Positions 7,116 through 60,746 of a DNA stretch of 64,000 bases are shown here, piece by piece. The DNA comes from an uncultured Enterobacteriaceae bacterium (GTDB taxonomy: Bacteria > Pseudomonadota > Gammaproteobacteria > Eutrophobiales > Eutrophobiaceae), in contig CAZDXS010000245.1 of assembly GCA_964509455.1 (NCBI GenBank), positions 9,392 to 73,391 of the forward strand. Reading direction: 5' to 3'. The first letter of the stretch is position 1. Every line of letters starts with the position of its first letter. The notes beneath the pieces are model-generated. The model ran no database searches. It saw only the letters and a list, made by a program, of their open reading frames with translations, and was not told where the DNA came from. The translations under genes were made by a program, and so were the position numbers.

Positions 7116-7119
7116 CAGG

Positions 7120-7500
7120 CGCCCTGCCCGTGGTTTGAGCGTGCCGCGGCGTCCTGCCCGTGGCTTGAGCGTGCAGAGGCGCCCCGGCCGGCCGCAGGAA
7201 ACGCCGCACCCCGGCGGCCGGGTTCCCAGAATGATTGACCGGCAGGTGCGGCGACCGGCCCGTGGTTTGAGTGCGCAGAGACGCCCTGCCCGTGGTTCGA
7301 ACGTGCGGCGGCACCCCGTCCGGCCGCAAGGAACGCACGGCGGCGGCCGGGTTCCCAGAAAGATTGACCGGCAAGCGCGGCGCCCTGCCCGTGGTTTGAG
7401 CGCACAGAAGCGCCGCGGCCGGCCGCGGGGGAACGCGCCCCCGCCAGCGACAACCGCCTGTTGCCGGGGCGAGCGGGGAAGACGCCTATCATGGGCGGGG
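7120..7500. repeat. ~129-bp tandem array (about 3 units) filling the tatB-tatC spacer
   Basis: ggcggccgggttcccagaatgattgaccggca at 7213 recurs at 7342 (offset 129). The sub-motif gccctgcccgtggtttgagcg occurs about 5 times. Confidence 0.85.
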
Positions 7501-15490: not shown

Positions 15491-16002
15491 GGCCGCCGCG
15501 CACCGGGAAACCGCGGCCTACGCCAGGGGCTTTCCACGACAGCGGCCGCCGCGCACCAAGAAAGCGCCGGCAGGCGCCCCGCACCGGGGAAACGCCGACG
15601 GGCGCCAAGGGTGTTCCGCAACTGCGGCCGCCGCACACCGGGAAAACGCCGGCAGGCGCCGGGGCCTTTCCGCGACAGCGGCCGCCGCGCCCCAAGAAAG
15701 CACCGGCAAGCGCCAGGGGCTTTCCGCAATCGCGGCCGCCGCGCACCGGAAAAACGCCGGCAAGCGCCGGGGCCTTTCCGCGACAGCGGCCGCCGCGCAC
15801 CGGGAAACCGCGGCCTACGCCAGGGGCTTTCCACGACAGCGGCCGCCGCGCACCGGGAAAGCGCCGGCAAGCACCGGGGGCTTTCCACAACCGCGGCCGC
15901 TACGCACCGGGGAAGCGCCGGCAGGCGCCAAGGGCTTTCCACGACAGCGGCCCCCGCACCGGGAAAACGCCGGCCTACGCCAGGATTTTTTCCACGGCGG
16001 CA
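15491..16002. repeat. tandem array, 9 units of ~54 bp (one 82-bp variant), ending in the ptsP stop region
   Basis: The unit is ggccgccgcgcaccgggaaaNcgccggcaNgcgccNgggNctttccNcgacagc. Units 1 and 6 are identical and carry ctacgccagg, which copies the ptsP stop plus its last codons (real copy ctacgccaggattttttccacggcggc at 15975). Confidence 0.9.
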
Positions 16003-32370: not shown

Positions 32371-33048
32371 ATGCGCGCGATGATCCTGGCGGCGGGGCGG
32401 GGCGAGAGAATGCGCCCGCTGACCGCAACGCTGCCCAAGCCCATGTTGGCGGCCGCCGGCAAGCCCCTGTTGCAATACCAGGTGGAGGCGCTGGCGCGGG
32501 CCGGTTTTGCCGAGCTGGTCATCAACCGGGCGCGGCTGGGCGAGAAAATAACCGCTTATTTCGGCGACGGCGCTGATTTTGGCGTGTCCATACGCTACTC
32601 CGACGAGGGCGACGAGCCGCTGGAGACCGGCGGCGGCGTCCGGCAGGCCCTGCCCCTGCTGGGCGCCGAGCCGTTCCTGGTGGTGAACGGCGACATCTGG
32701 ACCGATTTCCCCCTGGCCGCCCTGAAACAGGCGGCGCCGGCGGCGGCGCACCTGGTGCTGGCGCCCAACCCGCCCCACCATCCCCGGGGAGACTTCGCCC
32801 TGGAGGACGGGCGCGTGCTGGCTGCGGGCCGCCCCGCTTTCACGTTCAGCGGCATCGGCGTGTATCACCCCTCCCTGTTTGCCGACATTCCAGAGCGCAA
32901 CTTCCCTCTGGCGCGGGTCCTGCGGCCGGCCCTGGAACGGCGGCAGGTCACGGGCGAGCTGTATGACGGCCGCTGGTTCGACATCGGCACACCGGCGCGG
33001 CTGGCGGCGCTGGAGCAGTTGCTGGACGAGTGTGCGGCTCAGCGGTAG
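32371..33048 (+). CDS. murU: nucleotidyltransferase, MurU-like (N-acetylmuramate 1-phosphate uridylyltransferase family)
   Basis: MRAMILAAGRGERMRPLTATLPKPML is the NTP-transferase G-rich loop. The 225-aa size and sequence are like MurU. Confidence 0.8.
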   Translation: MRAMILAAGRGERMRPLTATLPKPMLAAAGKPLLQYQVEALARAGFAELVINRARLGEKITAYFGDGADFGVSIRYSDEGDEPLETGGGVRQALPLLGAEPFLVVNGDIWTDFPLAALKQAAPAAAHLVLAPNPPHHPRGDFALEDGRVLAAGRPAFTFSGIGVYHPSLFADIPERNFPLARVLRPALERRQVTGELYDGRWFDIGTPARLAALEQLLDECAAQR

Positions 33049-33215
33049 CGGGTGGGGTCGGGAATGCCGGCGGCGCTGGGCAGATCACGGGCGAGATGCG
33101 TGACGGCCGCTGGTTCGACTTAGGCGCGCCGGCGCGGCCGGCGGCGCCGGCGCGGTTGCTGGACGAGCGCGCGGCTCAACGGTAGCGGGTGGGGTCGGGA
33201 ATGCCGGCGGCGCTG
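32944..33215. repeat. 137-bp tandem duplication (2 units) of the convergent murU/queC 3' ends
   Basis: tagcgggtggggtcgggaatgccggcggcgctg occurs at 33046 and 33183. Unit 1 holds the functional murU stop. Unit 2 holds the functional queC stop. Confidence 0.9.
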
Positions 33216-34651: not shown

Positions 34652-35965
34652 TTAATTGACCGGCGCCATGTCGGGGAGCGTAACCGCCCTGATCTCCCTC
34701 AGACGTTCTTCCGCCAGGCGGGCAACCGTCGTGCCGGGGTGTTGCCGCGCCGCCTCTTCCAGCCGCCGGCCGGCTTGCTCCATCCGGCCCAGCTCGTAGA
34801 GACAGAACCCGGCTTTCAGTTGCGCCTGGGCGGCCTTGCGGCTGTCGGGGTGGTCCTGCAACAGCCGGGAGTATTCTTCCAGCGCCAGGTCAAACCGCCC
34901 GTTCACGTAATAGGCCTCGGCCAGCCAGAAGCGCGCGTCCGGCGCCTGTTCGGCGGTCCCATGACGCGCCAGGAACGCTCGCAAGGCCGGCACGGCTTGC
35001 TGGTAGCGGGCGCGCTTTAGCAGGTCGAAAGCGCGGCGATACTCGGCGCGGGCCTGCTCCGGGTCTGACGGGGCTGGGGGCGCGGGCCGGCCCACGCCTA
35101 AGGGCGGCCAAGCCGCTTCCTGCGGGAATGTGTCCGCGTCCGGCGGCGACAATGCCTGCTCCTGCGGGAGTGCACCCGCGCCCGGCGGCGGCAATGCCTG
35201 CTCCTGCGGGAATGCGGCCGCGCCCGACCCCGCCAACGCTTGCTCCTGCGGGAATGCACCCGTGCCCGGCCCCGACAACGCCTGCTCCTGCGGGAATGCG
35301 GCCGTGTCCGACCCCGATAACGCTTGCTCCTGCGGGAGTGTACCCGCACCCGACCCCGACAATGCCTGCTCCTGCGGGAGTGCGCCCGTGTCCGGCGGCG
35401 GCAACGCCTGCTCCTGCGGGAATGCGCCCGTGTCCGGCGGCGGCAACGCCTCTTCCCGCGAGAAGGCGCCCGTGTCCAGCGGCGGCAACGCCTCTTCCCG
35501 CGAGAAGGCGCCCGTGCCCGGCGGCGGCAACGCCTCCTCCCGCGAGAATGCGCCCGCGCCCAGCGGTTCAATGATGGGATACAGCGGGTCCAGCATCTCG
35601 TCCTCCGCGCCCGGCGCCGGGTCAAAAGCGGCGACCCGGCGCGGCGGCGCCGCCTGCAAACGGCGCAAGCGCTCATCGAGATCCGCGTACAGGTCGCGCT
35701 GTTGCTTCTTGATCTGCTCTAACAAGTGACTCTGCGTCTCCAGCTCGCCGCGCAGGCGCTCCATTTCCTGTTGCATGGCTTCCAGCTGTTGCAACATTCG
35801 CACCAGCCCCTGGTTGCTCAGCAGTCGCTCGATGCGCTCCAAGCGCGCCGCCGTGTCCGCCTCGGGAGCCGCGGCTTCCTGGGCGCGGGCGCCGTCAAAA
35901 GCCGCGACCGCCGGCAGGACCAGCGCCGGCCACAGGGCAAATCGCAACAGGCGCAAGCGCATCAT
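34652..35965 (-). CDS. cpoB: cell division coordinator CpoB (YbgF) with expanded repeat linker
   Basis: It has a signal peptide, an N-terminal coiled coil (LERIERLLSNQGLVRMLQQLEAMQQEMERLRGELE) and a C-terminal TPR (YRRAFDLLKRARYQQAV...). It follows pal. Confidence 0.9.
   Translation of the reverse strand: MMRLRLLRFALWPALVLPAVAAFDGARAQEAAAPEADTAARLERIERLLSNQGLVRMLQQLEAMQQEMERLRGELETQSHLLEQIKKQQRDLYADLDERLRRLQAAPPRRVAAFDPAPGAEDEMLDPLYPIIEPLGAGAFSREEALPPPGTGAFSREEALPPLDTGAFSREEALPPPDTGAFPQEQALPPPDTGALPQEQALSGSGAGTLPQEQALSGSDTAAFPQEQALSGPGTGAFPQEQALAGSGAAAFPQEQALPPPGAGALPQEQALSPPDADTFPQEAAWPPLGVGRPAPPAPSDPEQARAEYRRAFDLLKRARYQQAVPALRAFLARHGTAEQAPDARFWLAEAYYVNGRFDLALEEYSRLLQDHPDSRKAAQAQLKAGFCLYELGRMEQAGRRLEEAARQHPGTTVARLAEERLREIRAVTLPDMAPVN
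35105..35565 (-). repeat. in-frame 42-bp (14-aa) tandem repeat, about 10.5 units, inside cpoB
   Basis: DNA unit is ctcctgcgggaatgcNcccgNNcccgNccccgNcaaNgcNtg. Peptide units are FSREEALPPPGTGA and FPQEQALSGSGAGA. Confidence 0.9.
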
Positions 35966-36256
35966 CAGTACGCGAACTCCGCCTTTCTGCTCAGCCGCTG
36001 GGCTTCCTGGGCGCAGGCGCCGTCACAAGCCGCGGCCGCCGGCAGGACCGGCGCCGGCCACAGGGCAAGTCGCAACAGACGCAAGCGCACCATCAGTACG
36101 CGAACTCCGCCTTTCTGCTCAGCCGCCGGGCTTCCTGGGCGCGGACGCCGTCACAAGCCGCGGCCGCCGGCAGGACCGCCGCCGGCCACAGGGCAAATCG
36201 CAACAGGCGCAAGCGAATCATCAGTACGCGAACTCCACCCTTCTGTTCAACCGCCA
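35873..36256. repeat. 128-bp tandem triplication of the pal-stop/cpoB-start junction
   Basis: ATG copies are at 35965 (real cpoB), 36093 and 36221. The boundary motif GGC(T/C)TCCTGG occurs at 35873, 36001, 36129 and 36257. Confidence 0.92.
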
Positions 36257-36754
36257 GGCCTCCTGGTCATGGCCGGCAACGGCGGGACGCTCCTCGCCGT
36301 AGCTCACGGTGATGAGTTGCGCCGGGTCAACGCCCAACACCACCAGTTGCTGTTTCACCGCACGCGCCCGTTGTTCGCCAAGGGCCAGGTTGTATTCCCG
36401 GGAACCGCGCTCATCGGCGTGCCCTTCCAGGGTCGCCTCGCGGCCCGGGTTGGCTTGCAAAAAACGGGCGTGGGCATGGATGAGCGCGTTGGAGTCCAGC
36501 GGCACGGCGCTGCTGTCGTAGTCAAAATAGATGACGCGCACCGGCGGCATGCTGGCCGGGTCGCCCAGCGGCGACATACCGCCGGCGCCGTCGTCTCCCA
36601 TTCCGAAAGCGCGGGCGCTTTCGTCCTCCCCTGCTGGTTGTTCCGCGCCGGCAGGGGCGCCGCCGCGCTCTTCGACGGGCACTTTCCTGGCGGATTCGGT
36701 GCAGGCGGTGAGCATCGCGCTCAGCAGGAGCGCCGATAAGATTTTACAGGTCAT
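36221..36754 (-). CDS. pal: peptidoglycan-associated lipoprotein Pal
   Basis: It has a lipobox (LSAMLTAC) and an OmpA-like domain (VIYFDYDSSAV...LEGHADERGSREYNLALGEQRA). Confidence 0.94.
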   Translation of the reverse strand: MTCKILSALLLSAMLTACTESARKVPVEERGGAPAGAEQPAGEDESARAFGMGDDGAGGMSPLGDPASMPPVRVIYFDYDSSAVPLDSNALIHAHARFLQANPGREATLEGHADERGSREYNLALGEQRARAVKQQLVVLGVDPAQLITVSYGEERPAVAGHDQEAWRLNRRVEFAY

Positions 36755-41235: not shown

Positions 41236-41554
41236 GTCGTCAGGGGGCGTAGCATGGGAACCGTCGGCGCAATTGGATCATTCTACAATCCAGGGCGCGG
41301 CGATGCAAGCCGCTGTGCCGGGCCGCTGGCATGCAACGCCTGGGGCGGGGACGAGCCCGGATCGGAGCGAAAGCGGACAACGGCGGGCGGCGGGGGCCTT
41401 ATCCCCGGCGCCGTGGTTGGCGCGGCGACGGCGGGCAGGAGAGACCGCGGGCCCGGCAAGCGCCGCACATCGCCTCGCGCAACCGCCCCGGCGCCCGGGC
41501 GGACGAATAACCGGCGCGGGAATAACGGACAGGCGTTGCGGGGCAGGGTATCAG

Positions 41555-44500
41555 CTAGGCGGTAACCAGGGTTACGTCCGGGTCCACGATGAAGCTGCCG
41601 GCAACGCCGGCGTACTGCTCGTAGTCCTCGCCGGCCACAGCCACGTCATCTCCCCGGGTGAAATCGTCCAGGTCGAAACGCAGAGTGTCATCGCTGTCGC
41701 CGTCGATGCGAAGCTGATAGTTGCCGTCGCCGTCCGCCAGCACCGCCAGGGCCTCAGTAGATAGGGTCAGGTCCGTGTTGCCGGCGCCTGCGCCCGCCAG
41801 GTCGATTTGCGGCACGCCCGCCAGCAGGGTCGCATCAACGGGAAGAAGCGCATTGGCTTGACCTGTCGACACCGCGGTCTGCAACTCGGACGCGACAGCA
41901 AGATCGGCAGAGTACGCAAAACCGTCCAGGGCGCCGGGGCCGGTTCGGCTCCAGCCGGACGCCAACGGCGCTCCATTCCCACCATGGAAAGTCACCGTGT
42001 AAGCGGGCCCATCGCCAAGGAGCGTTATCGTGTGTACGACCAGGTTGCCGGCGGCGCCCCACTGCCCGTGGAACTCCAGCCGGTCCAGCATGCCGTCGTT
42101 GTCGCTGTCGCGGCCCACCCAGTCCGGGCTGCCGTTGGCGTCGTGGTCATAGTGGTGTTCGTCGATGGCGCCGTCCCCGTCCTCATCAACACTGGAGCGT
42201 TCCACGATGCCGTCATCGCCTTCATCAAAGTCGGTGCGCACCACGGCGCCGGCCGCGTTGCGCGTGTAGGTCTCGGAGCGAATGGCAACATCGTCTCCCA
42301 GATCGTCCAACATGGAATCGAACGGAGTGCGCGCGCCTGCCTCGTCAGCGGCGCCGGTTTCCTTGCCGGCAACGCCCCGCGCACCAGGAGCGCCCGCGGC
42401 AGAGCGTCCCAGGCTGTTGCCGCTCCCACCCTCGATTCCAGGCTCCTCGGCAGGGGCGTCGCCCTCGCCGCCCACCGCCATCACTTTCTTGATCAGGTTC
42501 CCGTGGGCGTCGTAGGAGTAGGTCTCGATGCGATCCAACGTGCCGTCGCCCTCGTCATCGAACGCGGCCCGGTCGATGACCCCGTCCACGTTGTCATCGT
42601 AGTACGTGCCAATAACGGCGCCGGCGGTGTTCCACGCATAGACTTCCACGCGGTCCACGGTGTTGTCCGCATCGTCGTCAAAATCCGCGCGGATGATGCG
42701 GCCGTTGACGTCCCGCACGTAGGACTCAATACGGTCCACGGTGTTGTTCGCATCGTCGTCAAACCCGGTGCGGAGGCTGTTGCCCTGGTCGTCCCGCTCG
42801 TAGTAGGTCTCGATGCGGTCCAGGACCCCGTCCCCGTTCGGGTCAAAATGGGTGCGATCCACCCGGCCGTTGCCGTTGTCGTCGTAGTCGGTGCGAATGA
42901 TGATATTGGCGCCGTTCCGCGCATACGCCACGGTGCGCTCCGGGGCGCCGTCGGCATTGGCATCGAAGACGGTGCGGTCAATATAGCCGTTCGCATCGTC
43001 ATCGACGTCTGTGCGAATAACCTGACCCTGGCCGTTCCGCACATAGACTTCAACGCGGTCCGTCGTCCCGTCCGCGTCATCGTCAAAATCAGTGCGCAAA
43101 ATATTGCCGTTGGGATACCGCAGGTAGCTTTCCGTACGATCCACCGCGCCGTCGGCGTCGTCATCGAAGTCAGTGCGCTGAATACGGCCATTGGGGAACC
43201 GCGCGTAGGCCTCGGTGCGCTCCACAGTGCCGTCCGCATTGGCGTCAAAGTGGGCGCGATCCGCCCGGTCATCCAAATCGTCATCGAAGTCGGTCTGGAT
43301 GATGTCGCCGCCGGCGTTCCGCACGTAGGCCTCGGCGCGCTCCACTGTACCGTCCTCGTCCGCATCAACCCTGGCGCGGTCGGCATTGCCATCGCCGTCG
43401 TCATCGTACTCGATGCGCTCGGCCGTGCCGTTTTCGTTGGCGTCAAACTCCACCCGGTCCACCGTGCCGTCATCGTCCGCATCCACCTCGGTGCGCTCCG
43501 CCGCGCCGTCGGCGTCCGCGTCAAACTCGCGCCGGTCGACGATGCCGTCGGCGTCGCTGTCAACATCGGTCTGGATGACGTCCCCGGCGCTGTTTCGCAC
43601 ATACGTCTCGATGCGATCCAGCGTGCTGTCCGCGTTGTCGTCAAAGGCGGTGCGGGCAATGCGACCGGCGCCGTCCAGCGTGTAAGACTCGATGCGCTCG
43701 GCCGTGCCGTCGGCGTCATCATCAAACTCGGTACGGATGATGCGCCCGTTGCCGTCCCGCCCATAGGTCTCGATGCGCTCGGCCGTGCCGTCCGCGTCAT
43801 TGTCAAACTCGGTGCGGGTGATGCGCCCATGGCCGTCCCGCCCGTAGGTCTCGATGCGGTCCGCCGTGCCGTCATCGTTCGCATCAAACTCCACCCGGTC
43901 TGCCGTGCAGTCATCGTCCGCATCCACTTCGGTGCGCTCCGCCGTACCGTCCGCGTCCGCGTCAAACTCGCGGCGGTTGACGATACCGTCGGCATCGCTG
44001 TCAACACCGGTCTCAATGGCGTCGCCGTCGCTGTTCCGCACATACGTCTCGATGCGGTCCGCCGTGCCGTCCGCATCGTCATCGAAAGCAGTGCGGGTGA
44101 TGCGGCCGTCGACGCCCCGCGTGTGGGACTCGATGCGGTCCACCGTACCGTCGGCGTCCGGGTCAAAATGGTCGCGGTCAATATGGCCGTCCGCATCGTC
44201 ATCGAAGCGGGTGCGAATGATTTCCTTGGCGCCGTTCCGCAGGTAGTTTTCAGCGCGCTCAAACGTGCCGTCGCCGTCCGAGTCGAAGAATATCCAGTCA
44301 ATATGACCATCTTGATCCGTATCGACCTCGATGTCGGCAGATTGCGTGGCGACCCCGGACTGTTGCGGCGGCGCGGCATTCCCGGGGTCTTGCTCCTGCG
44401 GCTCGATGCGGTCCACCGTGCCGTCCGCGTCGTCATCGTACTCGGTGCGCGTCACCTGCCCGGCGGTATTGCGCGTATAGAACTCGATGCGATCAACGGC

Positions 44501-45346
44501 GCCGTCGGCATTGTCATCGAAGTCGGTGCGCTCCACCTGCCCGGCGGTATTGCGCGTATGATGCTCGATGCGCTCGCTGATCCCGTCATCGTTGTCATCG
44601 AACACCACCCTGACCAGGCGACCCTGCCCATCGTAAGCGTATATCTCCAGCCCCTCCGCAACACCGTCCGCATCGCCGTCAACCGCCGCCCGGGACGGCA
44701 ACCCGGCCGCATTGAAAAAGTTGTAGCGCAGGATCCTATCCGCCGTTCCATCGGCGTCGCTGTCCGTGGAGAGACGGACTACGCGCCCTTGGGCATCGTA
44801 GCCGTACTGTTCGATTCGATCCGCGGCGAACGCGGTCCCGTCGTAATCGTCATCGAACTGCACTTCAATCCGTTGCCCCACGTCCGCCTGGGAAATAGCG
44901 CCGGCATTGGCCTGCGCCTGGGCGCCATAGACATAGCGCTCCACACGGTCTACTGTGCCGTCCGCATTGTCGTCAAAGTCGGTGCGGACGATGCGGCTGT
45001 CGGCATCCTGCGTGTGTACCTCGGGGGGATTGACGGCATCGCTACCAGCATCGCCGGAACCTCCGGAATCATCAGAGCTTCCGGTGTCGCCGGAACTTCC
45101 CGTCTCATCGGGAACAGCGGGAGGTGCGTCAAAAAACCCGGGGGACAGCGTAGAAAGCAAGTCCAAGCTCGAGTAATAGCGATAGATCACATCTTCGTAT
45201 GTCACCTCCGAGGGAAAGATCTCGGGAAACAGCCAAAAAGCATCGGGCGTATAAACAGCGGGATCATAATGATCGTAAAAACGGGACGCCAGCCCAGCGC
45301 TTCCGTCCGGGATCAAGAAATCTCTTGTGTTCATTTCAGTCGTCAT
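41555..45346 (-). CDS. giant secreted-type repeat protein (~41 D-x-D-x-D-G calcium-loop/YD-like repeats; T1SS-like C-terminus)
   Basis: ORF 41555..45361 has a GTG start. ATG 45346 gives MTTEMNTRDFL. The ~28-30-aa unit DDDADGTVDRIETYxRxxxGxIxRTxF repeats throughout. The C-terminus is acidic and Gly-rich and ends DPDVTLVTA. Confidence 0.8.
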   Translation of the reverse strand: MTTEMNTRDFLIPDGSAGLASRFYDHYDPAVYTPDAFWLFPEIFPSEVTYEDVIYRYYSSLDLLSTLSPGFFDAPPAVPDETGSSGDTGSSDDSGGSGDAGSDAVNPPEVHTQDADSRIVRTDFDDNADGTVDRVERYVYGAQAQANAGAISQADVGQRIEVQFDDDYDGTAFAADRIEQYGYDAQGRVVRLSTDSDADGTADRILRYNFFNAAGLPSRAAVDGDADGVAEGLEIYAYDGQGRLVRVVFDDNDDGISERIEHHTRNTAGQVERTDFDDNADGAVDRIEFYTRNTAGQVTRTEYDDDADGTVDRIEPQEQDPGNAAPPQQSGVATQSADIEVDTDQDGHIDWIFFDSDGDGTFERAENYLRNGAKEIIRTRFDDDADGHIDRDHFDPDADGTVDRIESHTRGVDGRITRTAFDDDADGTADRIETYVRNSDGDAIETGVDSDADGIVNRREFDADADGTAERTEVDADDDCTADRVEFDANDDGTADRIETYGRDGHGRITRTEFDNDADGTAERIETYGRDGNGRIIRTEFDDDADGTAERIESYTLDGAGRIARTAFDDNADSTLDRIETYVRNSAGDVIQTDVDSDADGIVDRREFDADADGAAERTEVDADDDGTVDRVEFDANENGTAERIEYDDDGDGNADRARVDADEDGTVERAEAYVRNAGGDIIQTDFDDDLDDRADRAHFDANADGTVERTEAYARFPNGRIQRTDFDDDADGAVDRTESYLRYPNGNILRTDFDDDADGTTDRVEVYVRNGQGQVIRTDVDDDANGYIDRTVFDANADGAPERTVAYARNGANIIIRTDYDDNGNGRVDRTHFDPNGDGVLDRIETYYERDDQGNSLRTGFDDDANNTVDRIESYVRDVNGRIIRADFDDDADNTVDRVEVYAWNTAGAVIGTYYDDNVDGVIDRAAFDDEGDGTLDRIETYSYDAHGNLIKKVMAVGGEGDAPAEEPGIEGGSGNSLGRSAAGAPGARGVAGKETGAADEAGARTPFDSMLDDLGDDVAIRSETYTRNAAGAVVRTDFDEGDDGIVERSSVDEDGDGAIDEHHYDHDANGSPDWVGRDSDNDGMLDRLEFHGQWGAAGNLVVHTITLLGDGPAYTVTFHGGNGAPLASGWSRTGPGALDGFAYSADLAVASELQTAVSTGQANALLPVDATLLAGVPQIDLAGAGAGNTDLTLSTEALAVLADGDGNYQLRIDGDSDDTLRFDLDDFTRGDDVAVAGEDYEQYAGVAGSFIVDPDVTLVTA

Positions 45347-45606
45347 AAGTACCTCAGCCACGGCTCAATCAGTACGCCGGCCAGGATGTGTGACACTCGC
45401 ATTATGGCAAAAGTTCAAACAATTGTCAAGCGTGCGCGGGTTCATTACGCATTGAAATCCGGGAGTTGCTCAAGCAACGCTCGGGCCTAAGGACTCTTTT
45501 GTGTTCGTTTCAGTCGTCATAAGTACCTCCACTACAGCTCAATTAGCACGCCAGCCAAGACGTGTGACACCCGCATTATGGCAAAAGTTCAAACGGTCGT
45601 CAAGGA
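45322..45606. repeat. ~110-bp direct repeat at 174-bp offset covering the start codon and upstream region of the giant gene
   Basis: ttcagtcgtcataagtacctc occurs at 45335 and 45509. cattatggcaaaagttcaaac occurs at ~45400 and ~45574. Confidence 0.88.
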
Positions 45607-45813
45607 ATATGCACCGGCTCGCAACATACAACGTTTGGGGAGGGCGGGCAAGGCCTTGCATGGGTTCATATCATATTGGAATCCGGTAGTTAATCAAGTA
45701 GTGCCTGAGGCCGGGGACTTCAATCCCCGGCATCTGGGCGGGAGAGCTGGGTGGAGGGCGCACCAGGCAGGCAGGCGCGGGTAGGCAGCCGCGGCCGTGG
45801 GCAGACGCCACGG

Positions 45814-46419
45814 TCAGGCGACCGCCGCTTTCAGGGCGGCGCGGATCAAGTCCTCGCTGCTCATGCCCTCCCCCGCCGCACCGCGCACCAGGCGGCCGGC
45901 TTCCCTGGGGTTGTAGCCCAGGGCCACCAGGGCGGCGATGGCTTCGTTGACCGGCGCCGCTGCGCTCGTTGCGGGGGCGGCGCCCTTCCCGCCGGCGGCA
46001 GGCTCTGCCGCTGGGCGGTCTTTCAGGCGGTCGCTCATCTCCACGAGCAGGCGCTCCGCCATCTTCTTGCCGACGCCCGGCAGGCGGGTGAGACGCGCCG
46101 CGTTGCCGGTTTCTATGCATTGCACGAACTCGTCGGCGCCGATGCCGGACAGTATCGCCAGCGCTGTCTTGGCGCCTACGCCGCTGACCTTGATCAGGGC
46201 GCGAAACACGTAGCGCTCGTCCCCGGAGGCGAAACCGTACAGCAAGTGGGCGTCGTCCCGCACCACCAGGTGCGTCAACAGCTCAACCTCCTCGCCGGCG
46301 GGCGGCAGGACGTAAAACGTGTTCATGGACGCTTCCAGTTCGTACCCCACGCCTTGCACGTCCAGGGTCAGCGTCGGCGGTTGGCGGGCGATGATCCTGC
46401 CGCGCAGAAACCCGATCAT
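45814..46419 (-). CDS. ruvA: Holliday junction DNA helicase subunit RuvA
   Basis: 201 aa from MIGFLRGRIIARQPPTLTLDVQGVGYELEASMNTFY. The HhH motifs are LIKVSGVGAKTALAILS and LPGVGKKMAERL. Confidence 0.95.
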   Translation of the reverse strand: MIGFLRGRIIARQPPTLTLDVQGVGYELEASMNTFYVLPPAGEEVELLTHLVVRDDAHLLYGFASGDERYVFRALIKVSGVGAKTALAILSGIGADEFVQCIETGNAARLTRLPGVGKKMAERLLVEMSDRLKDRPAAEPAAGGKGAAPATSAAAPVNEAIAALVALGYNPREAGRLVRGAAGEGMSSEDLIRAALKAAVA

Positions 46420-46888
46420 GGCCGCAGCGCCGGGGTCTGCGGCTGGACGAGCGCCAGGGGGCGCCGCGAATGACCGCAGCGCAGGGCAACGTCCAGGGCC
46501 GGCGGCGGTTGGCGGGTGATGATCCTGCCGCGCAGAAACCCGATCATGGCCGCAACGCCGAGGTCTGCGGCCGGCCGGGCGCCGGGGGGCGCCGCGAATG
46601 ACCGCAACGCAGGGCAACGTCCAAGGCCGGCGTCGGCGGTTGGCGGGCGATGAGCCTGCCGCGCAGAAATCCGATCATGGTCGCGGCGCCGGGGTCTGCG
46701 GCTGGACGGGCGCCAGGGGGCGCCGCGAATGACCGCAATGCAGGGCAACGTCCAGGGTCAGCGTCGGCGGTTGGCGGGCGATGATCCTGCCGCGCAGGAA
46801 TCCGATCATGGTCGCCGCGCCAAGGTCTGCGGCTGGACGGGCGCCAGGGGGCGCCGCGAATGGCCGTGACACAGGGCAACGGCCAGGG
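46358..46888. repeat. tandem array, 4 units (128/131/131/131 bp), of the ruvC-stop/ruvA-start junction
   Basis: ATG copies are at 46419 (real ruvA), 46547, 46678 and 46809. Boundary motifs are ACGTCCAGGG (ruvA side, 46358) and ACGGCCAGGG (ruvC side, 46879). Confidence 0.92.
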
Positions 46889-47378
46889 CGTCGGCGGCAT
46901 CCTCCTGGGGCGGCTCCGCCAGGCACAGCAGGACCTTGACCATGTACTGCACCTGGGTTTTCTGCGCGTGTCCCTTGCCCACGGCAGCCTGCTTGACCTG
47001 GTTCGCCGTGTACTCAAAAACCGGCAGGCGCAGTTCGGCGCAGGCGGTGACGGCGGCGCCGCGGGCTTGCCCCAGCTTCAGCGCGGAATCGGCATTGCGG
47101 TACATGAATATTTTTTCGACGGCGGCCTCGGCCGGGCGGAATTCGCGTATTACTCCGGCAATTTCATGGAAAATTCGCCCTAGGCGCTCCGCCAGGGCTT
47201 CTCCTTGCACCGCGACGTGACCGTGGGTCACGTGCACGGCGTGATTGCCGGCAATGTCAATGACGCCGTACCCCGTTTGGCGAAAGCCCGGGTCAATCCC
47301 CAGGATGCGCACCACAGGCGCGGCGCCGGCCCGAGGCCGCGCCGGCGGCCGCTCAGTCCGGGCGGCGCCGGGCGTCAT
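46806..47378 (-). CDS. ruvC: crossover junction endodeoxyribonuclease RuvC
   Basis: RILGIDPGFRQTGYGVIDIAG...KIFMYRNADSALKLGQARG...DAADALAVALCHGH matches RuvC. The true start may be downstream of ATG 47378. Confidence 0.92.
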   Translation of the reverse strand: MTPGAARTERPPARPRAGAAPVVRILGIDPGFRQTGYGVIDIAGNHAVHVTHGHVAVQGEALAERLGRIFHEIAGVIREFRPAEAAVEKIFMYRNADSALKLGQARGAAVTACAELRLPVFEYTANQVKQAAVGKGHAQKTQVQYMVKVLLCLAEPPQEDAADALAVALCHGHSRRPLAPVQPQTLARRP

Positions 47379-47420: not shown

Positions 47421-48167
47421 TTACTCCATCTGGGCGAGAACCGCATCGGGGATTTCCGCGTTGGAATACACTTTCTGCACGTCGTTCAGGTCCTCCAGGG
47501 CCCCCAGCAGGCGCACCATGGTCTGGGCGCCGGACAGGTCCAGGGCGACGCCGCTGGCCGCGCGCATCGTCACTTCCGCCGTCTCGGGCGCGTAACCGGC
47601 CTTGAGCAGCGCGTCTTTCACGCGGACGAAATCATCCGGCGCCGTGAGCACGTCCAGGGAGCCGTCCTCGTTGCTCACCACGTCATCCGCCCCGGCTTCC
47701 AGGGCCGCCTCCAGCAGGGCGTCCTCCTCAACGCCGGGCGCACAGGCAAACAGGCCCACCTTGGTGAACAGGTAGGAGACCGAGCCGTCGGTGCCCAGGT
47801 TGCCGCCGTAACGGGTGAGGACATGACGCACCTCCGCCACGGTGCGGTTGCGGTTGTCGGTCAGACAATCCACCATGACGGCGACGCCGTTGGGGCCGTA
47901 GCCCTCGTAGCGCGCTTCTTCCAGGTTTTCGCCCTCGCCGCCGCCGGCGCCGCGCTTGACGGCGCGTTCAATGGCGTCCTTGGGCACGTTGCTGGAAAGG
48001 GCGTGATCCACCGCGGTGCGCAGGCGGGGATTGCCGTCGGGATCGGCGCCGCCCAGGCGCGCCGCCACCGTGAGTTCGCGGATCAGCCTGCTGAACAGGC
48101 GCCCGCGCTTGGCGTCCTGGCGCCCCTTGCGGTGCTGAATGTTCGCCCACTTGCTGTGTCCCGCCAT
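47421..48167 (-). CDS. YebC/PmpR-family DNA-binding transcriptional regulator
   Basis: [40 protein letters not shown] is the canonical YebC N-terminus. Confidence 0.95.
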
Positions 48168-48248
48168 GATGATTGCCTGGTCCTGTTTCGTAAGTCGCAA
48201 CGCTGGTTGGAATGTCCCGCGCCCCGGAGGACGGCGGCGGGTGGCGCC

Positions 48249-49325
48249 TCAGGCGTCGCCGGCGCCGTATATGGGTTGTTGTCGCTGGGCGGCGAAATCC
48301 AGCAACCGCTCTATGGGCGCCCGGGCCCGCTTGATGACGTCCGCGTCAACGAAAATCTCGGTAGCGCCGGACTCCAGCGCGGCTTGCAGCTTTGTGAGGC
48401 TGTTCATGGCCATCCAGGGGCAGTGGCCGCAACTTTTGCAGGCGGCGCCCTTGCCCGCGGTGGGCGCTTCCAGCAGGGTCTTGCCGGGCGCGGCCCGTTG
48501 CATCTGGTGGAAAATGCCGCGGTCGGTGGCGATGATGAACGTATCCGCGTCCAGTTTCTCGACCGCCCGTATGAGGCCCGAGGTGGAGCTCACCACGTCA
48601 GCTTGTTCGATCACCGCGGCGGGCGATTCCGGGTGCGCCAGCACCGCCGCCCGGGGATGTTGCCGCCGCAACTCCGCCAGTTCCTTGCCCTTGAACTCCT
48701 CGTGCACCACGCAACTGCCCTGCCACAGCACCATTTCGGCGCCGGTGCGGGCTTGCACGTATTCGCCCAAGTACTTGTCCGGGGCCCAGAGGATTTTTTC
48801 CCCTTGCGCCGCCAGGTGCTTCACCACGTCCACCGCGCTGCCCGAGGTGACCATCCAGTCGGCGCGGGCTTTCACCGCGGCGCTGGTATTGGCATAGACC
48901 ACCACGGTATGGTCCGGATGACGGTCGCAAAAAGCGCTGAAAGCGTCAATGGGACAGCCCAGGTCCAGGGAACATTCCGCCTGCAGGTCGGGCATCAACA
49001 CGCGCTTTTCGGGATTCAGAATCTTCGCGGTCTCGCCCATGAAGCGCACCCCGCAGACCACCAACACGGCCGCGCCCGATTCGTGGCCGAATCGGGCCAT
49101 GTCCAGGGAGTCGGAGACGCAACCGCCGGTCTCGTCCGCCAGCAACTGTATGTCCGGCTCGGTGTAGTAGTGCGCCACCAGCACGGCGTTGCGCTCGCGC
49201 AACAACTGCTTGATGCGGCGAATGCACTGGTCCCGTTCCTCGAGACCCAAGGCCTCGACGACGGTTTCCGGCACCCGCTCCGACGGTAGCCGATAGTCCT
49301 GACTGGTTGTTGCTGTGTTCATCAT
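48249..49325 (-). CDS. nadA: quinolinate synthase
   Basis: 358 aa. [28 protein letters not shown] and the downstream Cys ligands match NadA. Confidence 0.95.
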
Positions 49326-49375
49326 TTACAAGCAGTCATTGTAAGCGTTCAGGCGCGGCGCTTCAATGCGTATCG

Positions 49376-49800
49376 CGCAACGTTGCGGGACAACCGCTCG
49401 CAGGAAGCCGCCCAACGTTTGCCCCGCCGCGGGGTCCGGCATAGTCGCGACAGGCGACGCGGAGCGGACGCTCGCAGGCGGCCGCGGCAACATCCGTCCC
49501 GCCGCGGGGCCCGACCTGGTCGCGACAGGCGACGCGGAGCGGACACCCGCAGGCGGCTACGGCAACATCCGTCCCGCCGCGGGGCCCGGCACGGTCGCGA
49601 CAAGCGACGCGGAGCGGACATCCGCAGGCGGCCGCAACTCCGTTTGCCCCGCCGCGGGGCCCGGCATCGTTACGGCGGGCGCCGTGGTCAGCGGGCAGGA
49701 GGCGGTCTGGGTCCTTGGGCAAAGCGATCACGTCCCGAATCCCCGCGGCGCCGGCCAGGATCATGGCGATGCGATCCAGGTCGAAAACAATGCCGGGGCG
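49376..49800. repeat. 75-bp tandem array (about 4 units) plus a ~125-bp pseudo-copy of an internal aspS 3' segment
   Basis: gcgacaggcgacgcggagcgg occurs at 49447, 49522 and 49597. gatcacgtcccgaatccccgcggcgccggccaggatcatg at 49726 copies aspS 49920 (offset 194). Confidence 0.88.
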
Positions 49801-49802
49801 GG

Positions 49803-51569
49803 TTACGGTTTTGGCGGCTTTGCGGCAGGCCGGATGCCCAGTTCGCGCAACTGGCGCGGCGATGCCGGGGACGGCGCCGCGGTCAGCGGGCAGGAAGCGG
49901 TCTGGGTCTTGGGGAAGGCGATCACGTCCCGAATCCCCGCGGCGCCGGCCAGGATCATGACGATGCGGTCCAGACCGAAAGCGATGCCGCCGTGGGGCGG
50001 GCAACCGTACGCCAGGGCGTCAATGAGAAAGCCGAATTTTTCCCGGGCCTGGGCCTCGTCGAAACCCGACAACTCCAGGACTTTCAACTGCGTCTCCTGA
50101 TCATGGATGCGGATGGACCCGCCGCCCAGCTCCAGGCCGTTCAACACCAGGTCGTAGGCCCGCGACAGGCCGTGTTGCAGGTCGGCGGCCGCCGCCGGTT
50201 GCGGGGCGGTGAACGGATGGTGCAGGGCCTCCCAGCGCTGTTCGTCCTCCTTGTATTCAAACAGCGGGAAGTTCACCACCCACAGCGGCGCCCAGTCCCC
50301 TTCCTGCAACTGCTGGTCTTCTCCCAGCCGCTCCCGCAATGCGCCCAGCGAGTTGTTGACGATGCGCGCCTTGCCGGCGCCGAAGAACACGACATCGCCG
50401 GTGCGCGCGCCGGTGCGTTGCAACACGGACTGCACCATCTCCCCGGGCAGGAATTTCAGAATGGGCGACTGCAGTCCGTCAATGCCTTTCTCAAGATCAT
50501 TGACCTTGATGTACGCCAGGCCGCGAGCGCCGTACTTGCCGACGTAGGCGGTATATTCGTCAATCTGCCCGCGGCTGAGCGCGGCGCCGCCGGGCAGGCG
50601 CAGGGCGGCAACCCGGCCGTCGGGGTCGGCGGCCGGTTCGGAAAACACCTTGAACTCCACCTGTTGCGCCAGGTCGGCCGCTTCCACCAGCTCCAGCGGG
50701 TTGCGCAGGTCCGGCTTGTCCGTGCCGTAGCGGCGCATGGCGTCGGCATAGGACAGGCGGGGAAACGGCTGCGGCAACTCGATGTCTTTCACCTGCTGGA
50801 ACAAGGTGCGCAACAATCCCTCCGCCAGGTTGATGACGTCCTCTTCCTCGACGAAAGACATCTCCAGGTCCAGCTGGGTGAATTCGGGCTGGCGGTCGGC
50901 CCGCAGGTCCTCGTCGCGAAAACAGCGGGCCACCTGGTAGTAGCGCTCCATGCCCCCCATCATCAACAGTTGCTTGAACAGTTGCGGCGACTGGGGCAGG
51001 GCAAAGAAATCGCCCGGGTGGGTGCGGCTGGGCACCAAGTAATCGCGGGCGCCTTCGGGCGTGGCGCGGGTCAGGAAAGGCGTTTCAATCTCGAGGAATC
51101 CCTGCGGCTCCAGGTAGTCGCGAACGGCGCGGGTGACGCGGCTGCGCAACACTAGGTTGTCCCGCATGGCGTCGCGGCGCAGGTCAACGTAGCGGTAGCG
51201 CAGGCGAATGTCGTCCTGCACGTTGTCGTCGTCCAGTTGGAACGGCGGGGTCCTGGCCGGGTTCAGGATGTCGATGGCGCGGCCCGCCACCTCCACCTCG
51301 CCGGTGGCCATGTTGGGGTTGATGGTGCCTTCCGGGCGCCGCCGCACCGTGCCGCGAATGCGAATGACGTACTCGTTTCGGACCGCGTCCGCAACGGCGA
51401 AAGAAGCAGCCTGGTCCGGATTGAAAACGACCTGCGCCAATCCTTCCCGGTCGCGCAGGTCGATGAAGATCACGCCCCCGTGGTCGCGCCGCCGGTGCAC
51501 CCAGCCGCACAGGGTCACCTCCGCATCGATCAGGTCGGCGGTTAGTTGGCCGCAATAATGGCTGCGCAT
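49803..51569 (-). CDS. aspS: aspartate--tRNA ligase
   Basis: 588 aa. [43 protein letters not shown] is present, along with the class II motifs and the C-terminal FPKT. Confidence 0.97.
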
Positions 51570-59316: not shown

Positions 59317-60321
59317 CTACTCGGCAAACTGGGGGATGATGCGCTCTGCGTACCCGGCAATAATCTCCTCCTCGTTGCCGTTGTCCAGGTAAATATTGAA
59401 CTGCGTCACACCCGCGTCACGCAACCGGCGCAACCGGGCGATGTGATCGGCGGGGTTGCCCAGCACGCAGAAGCCCTGGACAATGTCGTCGGTGATAAAA
59501 TCCAAAAACGGGTTGTCGGCGGCGCCGTGTTTCTTGTAGTCGTAACCGCGCCGCTTTGCGATGTACGCGGTCAGACTCCGGGGCGCCTTGTCCGTGTCCG
59601 CGCCGTATTTTTCCACGATGTCGGCAACATGGTTCCCCACCATGGCGGGAAACCACCGGACGGCCGCGATGCACTCGTCCATTGAGCCGAAATACGCCGG
59701 CGCCGCCGCCATTACCCGAAACGCCGCCGGGTCCCGCCCGGCGTCCCGGACCGCCGCATGGCACTGCTGGACGAACCAGCGCACCAGGGCCGGCTCGGCA
59801 ATCTGCAGTACCACCCCGTCGCCGCATTCACCCGCCACGGCCAGCGCTCGCGGCCCATAGGCGGCGATCCACACGGGCAACTCGTATCCCTCAGCCCAGC
59901 TGAATTGCACCGGCGCCGGGCAATCCGGGTACGTCGCTTCCTCGCCGCGCACCAGGGCTTTGACCGTGCGGGCAAACTCGGCAACGCGCGCCAGGGTCGC
60001 CGGTTTCCTGCCCATCACCCGCATGGAGCTGTCGCCCCTGCCCAGCCCCAGATCGAAGCGCCCGCCGCTTTGCCGGGCCAGGCTCGCAAACATGCTTGCC
60101 GCCACGGACCAGTCGCGCACGTTCGGGTTGGTAACGCAGGGGCCAAAACGCATGGTCGTCGTGTGCTCCATGCCCAGGGCGATGGCGGCGTAGCAGTCGC
60201 GCCAGAGGATGTGCGAGTCGTAGAACCAGCAGTAGGCGAACCCGCCGGTCTCCGCCTGGCGCACCAGGCGGCGCAACCGGCCGGGACTGACAACGCCCTT
60301 GAAGCAGACGCCGAACTCCAT
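59317..60321 (-). CDS. LLM-class (luciferase-like) flavin/F420-dependent oxidoreductase
   Basis: MEFGVCFKG...GGFAYCWFYDSHILWRD...FDLGLGRGDS matches the luciferase-like monooxygenase fold. The track start is GTG 60330. Confidence 0.82.
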   Translation of the reverse strand: MEFGVCFKGVVSPGRLRRLVRQAETGGFAYCWFYDSHILWRDCYAAIALGMEHTTTMRFGPCVTNPNVRDWSVAASMFASLARQSGGRFDLGLGRGDSSMRVMGRKPATLARVAEFARTVKALVRGEEATYPDCPAPVQFSWAEGYELPVWIAAYGPRALAVAGECGDGVVLQIAEPALVRWFVQQCHAAVRDAGRDPAAFRVMAAAPAYFGSMDECIAAVRWFPAMVGNHVADIVEKYGADTDKAPRSLTAYIAKRRGYDYKKHGAADNPFLDFITDDIVQGFCVLGNPADHIARLRRLRDAGVTQFNIYLDNGNEEEIIAGYAERIIPQFAE

Positions 60322-60746
60322 CCGGCTCACCCTCCCGGGGCGGCGCCCGGCGGCTCAACCGGCGCCGAACCTCCGGGTGAAACGAACGCCGAACTCACTG
60401 CGATCATTGTTGCGAATGGTACGCGCGAAAGGATTGCCAAAGGCGCCCGAGGCATCATCATACACCTTGTTGAACACATGCCCACCGCAACCAGCAACGC
60501 TCCAGGCGGCGCAACCGGCCGGGGCCAACAACGCCCTTGAAGCAGACGCCGAACTCCATCCGGCTCACCCTCCCGGGGCGGCGCCCGGCGGCTCAGCCGG
60601 CGCCGAACCTCCGGGTGAAACGAATGCCGAACTCACTGCGATCATTGTTGCGAATGGTAAGCGCGAAAGGGTTGCCAAAGGCGCCCGAGGCAGTATCATA
60701 CACCTTGTTGAACACATTCTCACCATAGACGGCAACGCTCCAGGCG
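60271..60746. repeat. 238-bp tandem duplication (2 units) of the TonB-receptor-stop/LLM-start boundary
   Basis: CCAGGCG occurs at 60264, 60502 and 60740. The pseudo-stop at 60355 corresponds to the real stop at 60593, and the real ATG at 60321 to the pseudo-ATG at 60559. Confidence 0.93.

Follow-up and report, generated by a model that had tools for sequence, protein, structure and literature searches.

Termination-reinitiation in E. coli and Haloferax requires that the stop codon of one gene and the start codon of the next overlap or nearly overlap, and it is lost when the two lie approximately 20–38 nt apart; the terminal 15 nt of the gene upstream are enough for it (PMC10666635). Coupling at −4 is also found in MIRUs, whose internal ORF is coupled in this way to the downstream gene, an arrangement thought to minimise the effect of the insertion on downstream translation (PMC12548453; PMC4213456). 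Microhomology-mediated tandem duplications (MTDs) are found between short GC-rich direct repeats and contain one intact copy of each flank, and survivors in constrained regions are in frame (PMC8639346). Long GC-rich microhomologies are approximately 1000-fold more duplication-prone, surviving duplications in essential genes keep the frame, and tandem duplicates normally revert quickly (PMC8639346).

Here we compare these systems with a tandem array at the ruvC/ruvA junction of a gammaproteobacterial genome. MIRUs (e.g., the senX3-regX3 array) are, like the ruvC/ruvA array, tandem units of tens to ~100 bp located between co-transcribed genes, and in both the stop codon of the unit ORF overlaps the next start codon at −4. 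MIRUs are, however, a dispersed family with a common consensus, apparently mobile and polymorphic in copy number, whereas the ruvC/ruvA array was built from the local junction and had no dispersed copies. The array shared with MTDs the short GC-rich direct repeats, the single intact copy of each flank and the preserved frame. Described MTDs are mostly young, subclonal and fast-reverting, while the ruvC/ruvA array was fixed, contained four junction copies with 8–10% divergence and was not intragenic but extended across a gene boundary. As in NTGA (−4) coupled pairs, the array junctions consisted of a canonical ATGA overlap preceded by over 15 nt of 3′ sequence from the upstream gene, which is what coupling needs (PMC10666635; PMC12548453). 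A normal NTGA pair has one junction between two functional genes, whereas here four junctions were chained via three ORFs without a function. Bacterial VNTRs and in-frame tandem repeats inside genes, of which the 42-bp repeats of cpoB and the 81-bp repeats of a 1268-aa protein are examples in the window, are likewise head-to-tail repeats kept open by frame constraints, but their periods are multiples of three and lengthen one protein; the ruvC/ruvA period was ≡ 2 (mod 3) and generated separate ORFs. In the literature collection searched, chains of relay ORFs derived from a gene junction had not been described. The closest functional counterpart of the array is the MIRU, and by origin the array is a microhomology-mediated tandem duplication. 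With moderate confidence, we interpret the array as a fixed and old microhomology-mediated tandem duplication of a stop-start overlap, with an in-frame geometry that is probably due to a survivorship filter. Rather than a new gene, the array represents a by-product of duplication that has been tolerated, and its mini-ORFs are decaying.

The window, i.e., the whole stretch of 64,000 nucleotides that was analysed, had a GC content of 68% and was of gammaproteobacterial origin. Its minus strand encoded aspS, nadA, yebC, ruvC, ruvA, a 4.3-kb insert, ruvB, tolQRAB, pal, cpoB and queE (Pfam; GC3 gene map). At the ruvC/ruvA junction, Tandem Repeats Finder (TRF) detected 4.1 copies of a repeat with 89% matches and a score of 847. 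Four ATGATCGG starts were present on the minus strand at 46809, 46678, 46547 and 46419, with spacings of 131, 131 and 128 bp, and the order on this strand was intact ruvC, the three extra units and intact ruvA (Table 1). Each extra unit contained an ORF encoding RuvA(1–20)::RuvC(last 23), the TGA of which overlapped the following ATG; for unit 3, this was the genuine ruvA ATG. The ATGA signal was present at four of four array junctions. A preliminary description of the sequence had reported four copies of the junction, three RuvA(1–20)::RuvC(C-terminal) ORFs chained by ATGA, a joint at ACG(T/G)CCAGGG and unit lengths differing by multiples of three. These observations were borne out: the copies were recovered with TRF and from the ATGATCGG positions, the translations were identical (44, 44 and 43 aa), the joint was found in both parental arms, and the sole indel was 3 nt long. 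The C-terminal tail of the ruvC product agreed with the tail in the closest relative, contig L162. Units 1 and 3 were present as gene calls (P0121 and P0122, respectively) on the source NCBI contig. Gene callers thus report junction-derived units as hypothetical proteins, which calls for caution in annotation.

Table 1. Features of the ruvC/ruvA array and other tandem duplications in the window.
Feature	Position	Strand	Length or period	Remarks
ruvC, intact	46806–47378	−	190 aa	Pfam RuvC at residues 25–171, whole 148-position model
ruvC stop TGA	46808–46806	−		Overlaps first extra ATG
ruvC microhomology arm CCCTGGCCGT	46879–46888	−		Upstream parent of joint
Extra unit 1	46679–46809 (with ORF, 46675–46809)	−	131 bp	44-codon chimeric ORF, TGA overlapping next ATG
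Extra unit 2	46548–46678 (with ORF, 46544–46678)	−	131 bp	44-codon chimeric ORF
Extra unit 3	46420–46547 (with ORF, 46416–46547)	−	128 bp	3-nt deletion; 43-codon chimeric ORF
ruvA, intact	45814–46419	−	201 aa	ATG at 46419; Pfam RuvA_N, HHH_5, RuvA_C
ruvA microhomology arm CCCTGGACGT	46358–46367	−		Codons 18–21; downstream parent of joint and array end
Array	7118–7408		132 bp	Upstream of tatC
Array	15575–15984		54 bp (54/161)	ptsI 3′ end in each unit
Array	32942–33215		137 bp	3′ end of nucleotidyltransferase gene
Array	35868–36266	−	128 bp	pal/cpoB
Array	46358–46889	−	131 bp	ruvC/ruvA
Array	49421–49667		75 bp	aspS/nadA spacer and diverged extra copy of aspS 3′ end
Array	60260–60746		238 bp	TonB-dependent receptor / luciferase-like gene
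Duplication	~45300–45700	−	~174 bp	Promoter and 5′ end of 1268-aa gene

The duplicated 131-bp segment comprised the final 23 codons of ruvC and the initial 20 of ruvA, and the unit consisted of the first 62 nt of ruvA and the last 69 nt of ruvC. The parental end-points shared CCCTGG(C/A)CGT, with C in ruvC and A in ruvA (10 of 11 positions identical when the flanking base was counted), and this short direct repeat occurred once per joint. Together with the head-to-tail copies of a local segment (TRF, unit alignment), its presence at both parental break points marks the array as a microhomology-mediated tandem duplication. Units 1 and 3 retained the joint motif, whereas unit 2 had a mutated form, CCTTGGACGT; with 10 changes relative to the inferred ancestor, unit 2 was also the one that had diverged most. 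The change in unit 2 from CCCTGG to CCTTGG was of the 5-methylcytosine-deamination type. Units 1–3 shared three derived changes (TGTGyCAC to TGCrTTGC) that neither the true ruvC nor the outgroup L162 had, which shows that one founder copy diverged first and was amplified later. The duplication left a whole ruvC at the upstream edge and a whole ruvA at the downstream edge. The founder copy gathered its own changes before amplification raised its number to three, and these copies then continued to diverge.

A RuvA with 96% identity (P0002) was found through a protein collection and was encoded on Logan contig L162; the identity of the window ruvA product with P0002/L162 was 95–96%. Across aspS to cpoB, L162 had approximately 93% DNA identity to the window. 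It contained a single GTGA ruvC/ruvA overlap without an array, and it had neither a pal/cpoB array nor an insert between ruvA and ruvB. An array at the ruvC/ruvA junction was present in none of 80 more distant relatives from the genome collection, the nearest of which had a RuvA identity of 72%, and a scan of the metagenome collection returned nothing closer than 62%. Since the junction was unduplicated in L162 and the 80 further relatives, the array is a derived state and is lineage-specific. The pairwise divergence of the units was 8–10%, and the window and L162 diverged by 8.9% at four-fold sites, with a dS of 0.165. Measured against this genome dS, the unit divergence places the origin of the array roughly halfway back to the split between the window lineage and L162; the array is old and fixed and does not represent a transient amplification. 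The ruvA start codon was ATG in all four window copies and GTG in L162 (position 2620), and distant relatives had either. The start codon changed either before the duplication or in the L162 lineage.

The RuvC C-terminal tail (46806–46880) was proline-rich (SRRPLAPVQPQTLARRP) in the window lineage and L162. In the more distant relatives L001–L009, the tail was SRENILRLK..., which is likely helical. The duplicated RuvC tail is itself lineage-specific and poorly conserved. A relative with a RuvA identity of 61% (L006) contained a 189-bp array of 2.9 copies with 95% matches at 2001–2547. It was rejected as a parallel to the ruvC/ruvA array, since it was located in the nadA-yebC spacer and not at a gene junction.

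Every long-period array in the window touched a gene end. Arrays with a period of at least 50 that was not a multiple of three numbered five in 64 kb, compared with three in 1,417 kb of other loci, which corresponds to a roughly 37-fold difference. The pal/cpoB array comprised 3.1 copies of its unit, which were joined at CCAGGA(G/A)GCC and had the stop-start overlap TGATG (−1); it contained two in-frame 42-codon ORFs encoding cpoB(1–31)::pal(last 11). Both of its extra units shared eight differences from the functional copies, the same pattern of a founder copy followed by amplification as at ruvC/ruvA. For the TonB-dependent receptor/luciferase junction, a close orthologue was not found, and the best match of the protein search was 80%. 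The microhomology bias and the frame preservation reported in the literature fit this genome. We infer that the ruvC/ruvA array belongs to a large set of duplications at gene boundaries in a GC-rich lineage under somewhat relaxed selection; the latter is hinted at by a dN/dS of 0.16 and would help fixation.

The unit ORFs are not genes. Changes at codon positions 1, 2 and 3 of the units numbered 8, 8 and 4, respectively, and units 1 and 2 differed in 9 of 44 residues. The chimeric peptides diverged by approximately 20% at the amino acid level, compared with 10% at the nucleotide level. A search of the chimeric peptide against 5.8 billion proteins yielded two matches only, both of them on the source contig (82.7 kb). 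Neither purifying selection on the encoded peptide nor homologues elsewhere, which would characterise a functional small protein or fusion, were found, and the units are unconstrained and non-functional as proteins. The flanking genes are both under purifying selection, with a dN/dS relative to L162 of 0.20 for ruvC and 0.17 for ruvA. The array was also considered as a structured RNA, a REP-like element or a terminator. These candidates were rejected, as the array contained no Rfam family, no unusual RNA structure (fold z-score of −1.1) and no promoter-like or terminator-like site.

The preliminary description had implied that the persistence of open frames and ATGA signals reflected selection or translation, and had proposed a permutation test for ORF preservation. 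We ran this test by distributing the 21 observed substitutions (16 transitions and 5 transversions) at random over the ancestral unit as inferred. The three frames all remained open in 63% of the simulations, all ATGA signals were intact in 51%, and both held in 32%, an unremarkable outcome (P = 0.32). The other two frames of the units were nearly stop-free too. Since both properties were retained this often by chance and the alternative frames were almost free of stop codons, persistence alone is no evidence of selection. The implied inference was not supported, also in view of the unconstrained peptides, and we no longer used the persistence of the ORFs by itself as an argument for selection. 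For the pal/cpoB array, the chance persistence of frames and signals had a P of 0.55.

The geometry of the units is more telling than their persistence. An ORF that begins with the copied ruvA ATG ends with the copied ruvC TGA, in overlap with the following ATG, only when the unit length is ≡ 2 (mod 3), as is the case for 131. The two overlapping-junction arrays in the window, ruvC/ruvA and pal/cpoB, were both in frame. The TonB-dependent receptor/luciferase-like array, the junction of which had a 35-nt spacer and its own Shine-Dalgarno (SD) sequence, was out of frame. The joint neutral probability of two relay-competent arrays was approximately 0.004–0.007, with n = 2. At this sample size, the frame geometry is suggestive of a selective filter, which is plausible but unproven.

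The stop and start codons at the ruvC/ruvA junction overlapped as in a coupled gene pair, and in 11 of 15 relatives checked the (A/G)TGA overlap was conserved and preceded by a RuvC-like ORF. An SD-like motif was absent from ruvA and from every unit. The preliminary description had named a promoter or ribosome-binding site belonging to ruvA itself among the findings that would refute it. Both were looked for and neither was found, but the absence of an SD sequence is common in this genome. Since 11 of 17 well-supported window genes had no SD-like motif, SD-independent initiation is common in the window, and translation of ruvA might begin independently. The local structure at the ruvA start had a folding energy of −26 kcal/mol, compared with −2 to −10 kcal/mol for operon-first genes. 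The mRNA strand of the array was C-rich (C 0.42, G 0.32).

We hypothesized that the array acts as a translational relay whose frame has been filtered, a reading that is plausible but unproven. Because 131 ≡ 2 (mod 3), each unit would recreate the ancestral −4 (ATGA) overlap. Each unit also contains 69 nt of ruvC 3′ sequence, and with the exact −4 overlap it should relay ribosomes. A ribosome ending ruvC could thus terminate and reinitiate three more times and reach the true ruvA start in frame. The mini-ORFs would serve as a relay only and probably just pass ribosomes on to ruvA. They may also keep the C-rich stretch translated and hence shielded from Rho, for which the array mRNA, if untranslated, would be a plausible entry site. 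If a duplication at a coupled junction had another length, ribosomes would be stranded or put out of frame, and the duplication would be lost. That the units are in frame is then probably due to a survivorship filter rather than an adaptation.

Other explanations concern the reality of the array and the source of its units. The ruvC/ruvA array itself was present in one public assembly only, as would be expected if a long-read assembly had produced a spurious repeat expansion, but such an artefact is extremely unlikely. The differences among the copies, at 21 positions and in one 3-nt deletion, followed a tree-like pattern that is not generated by assemblers, and copies 8–10% apart are explained by neither assembly collapse nor expansion. 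A contig from an independent short-read assembly (L081, Logan SRR16090826) had a 100% match to window positions 47463–49753 and reproduced the neighbouring 75-bp array in full. Alternatively, the units could be a mobile MIRU-like intercistronic element that was inserted at the ruvA start codon, since they resemble MIRUs in being tandem units between operon genes with ORFs coupled at −4 (PMC12548453). However, both halves of the unit were the flanking genes' own sequence, and a BLAST search of the unit within the window matched its own array and the two parents only. In addition, the other window arrays had unrelated, locally derived units, and neither an Rfam family nor a notable structure was present. 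The restriction of matches to the array and its parents effectively refutes a mobile-element origin, to which we attach hardly any credence.

Two further explanations accept the same locus and differ in what maintained it. Following the same mutational origin, the frame geometry could be due to chance, with ruvA initiating independently of ruvC, whether or not the units are translated, and the array being neutral junk fixed by drift. This deserves serious consideration, although we regard it as rather unlikely. One duplication is in frame one-third of the time, the frames and ATGA signals often survived by chance in the simulations, and all three unit frames were nearly stop-free. Genes without an SD sequence were the majority in the window, and the somewhat relaxed selection suggested by the genome dN/dS would allow neutral or slightly deleterious insertions to fix. 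In contrast, both overlapping-junction arrays were in frame with a sole indel of 3 nt (joint probability of ~0.005), the −4 overlap was conserved across the clade, and the ruvA start was GC-rich and structured. Reinitiation at a first extra ATG in another frame would, moreover, bypass or misread the true start (PMC10666635). The array could also be adaptive, either by attenuating or tuning RuvA against RuvC according to copy number, with each reinitiation step losing ribosomes, or through functional chimeric peptides. We consider this improbable, even though the array lasted to 8–10% divergence while tandem duplicates usually revert fast (PMC8639346), the expansion came after the founder copy had diverged, and pal/cpoB had the same architecture. 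The peptides were unconstrained and had no homologues elsewhere, the diverged units speak against an actively switching contingency locus, and the closest relative functions without the array. Many other window arrays were located at junctions where such tuning does not apply. For the interpretation as a tolerated, filtered duplication, the survival to 8–10% divergence is the least explained aspect; neutrality alone does not account for it, and retention could have been favoured.

By itself, the array is a duplication that has been tolerated and has brought no new function; it is of value as a marker. It demonstrates that repeated copying of a stop-start overlap is compatible with retention of both genes, and such arrays bear on what lets normally short-lived tandem duplicates persist to approximately 10% divergence. 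In-frame versus out-of-frame units at overlapping junctions, counted across the complete genome, would provide a natural test of the dependence of operons on termination-reinitiation coupling. We consider the interest of the array to be moderate and to derive mainly from the genome-wide gene-boundary duplication phenomenon that it exemplifies. On a wider and decidedly tentative view, which we think doubtful, the genome experienced a burst of 50–250-bp microhomology-mediated tandem duplications that survived almost only at gene boundaries. At coupled (−4/−1) junctions, only overlap-restoring lengths would have been tolerated, giving chains of non-functional relay ORFs. If both the burst and the filter are real, the genome would represent a natural mutagenesis experiment showing which operon junctions depend on termination-reinitiation.

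Joints were mapped precisely at 46879–46888/46358–46367, at ~36010 and 36240, and at ~60270 and 60745. A CCWGG (Dcm/Vsr-type) site was located inside the microhomology in three of four precisely mapped joints, compared with 4.9% of comparable 11-mer pairs in the window (nominal P = 5e-4, post hoc). CCWGG was absent from the 137-bp and 174-bp duplications. The duplication burst may have a specific cause, given CCWGG in three of four joints; as the association was noticed post hoc, it is only a lead.

Further repeats were observed elsewhere in the window. The 3′ end of aspS (49873–49947) had an extra copy with 93% identity just past the aspS stop codon (49678–49753), upstream of the 75-bp array, the units of which contained a GC-rich palindrome (GCCCCGCGGCGGGGC). 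The 4.3-kb insertion between ruvA and ruvB (41452–45791), absent from the 93%-identical L162, encoded a 1268-aa protein with 27-residue Asp-rich repeats (81-bp periods) and no Pfam match. Both copies of the ~174-bp duplication contained a near-consensus sigma-70 promoter (TTGACA/TTGACG, 17 nt, CATAAT, extended TG), an SD sequence and the first codons of the 1268-aa gene, and the ORF of the upstream copy stopped after 16 codons. Within cpoB (35103–35566), eleven in-frame 42-bp (14-residue) repeats were present, a further sign of frequent tandem duplication with only frame-preserving events surviving inside genes.
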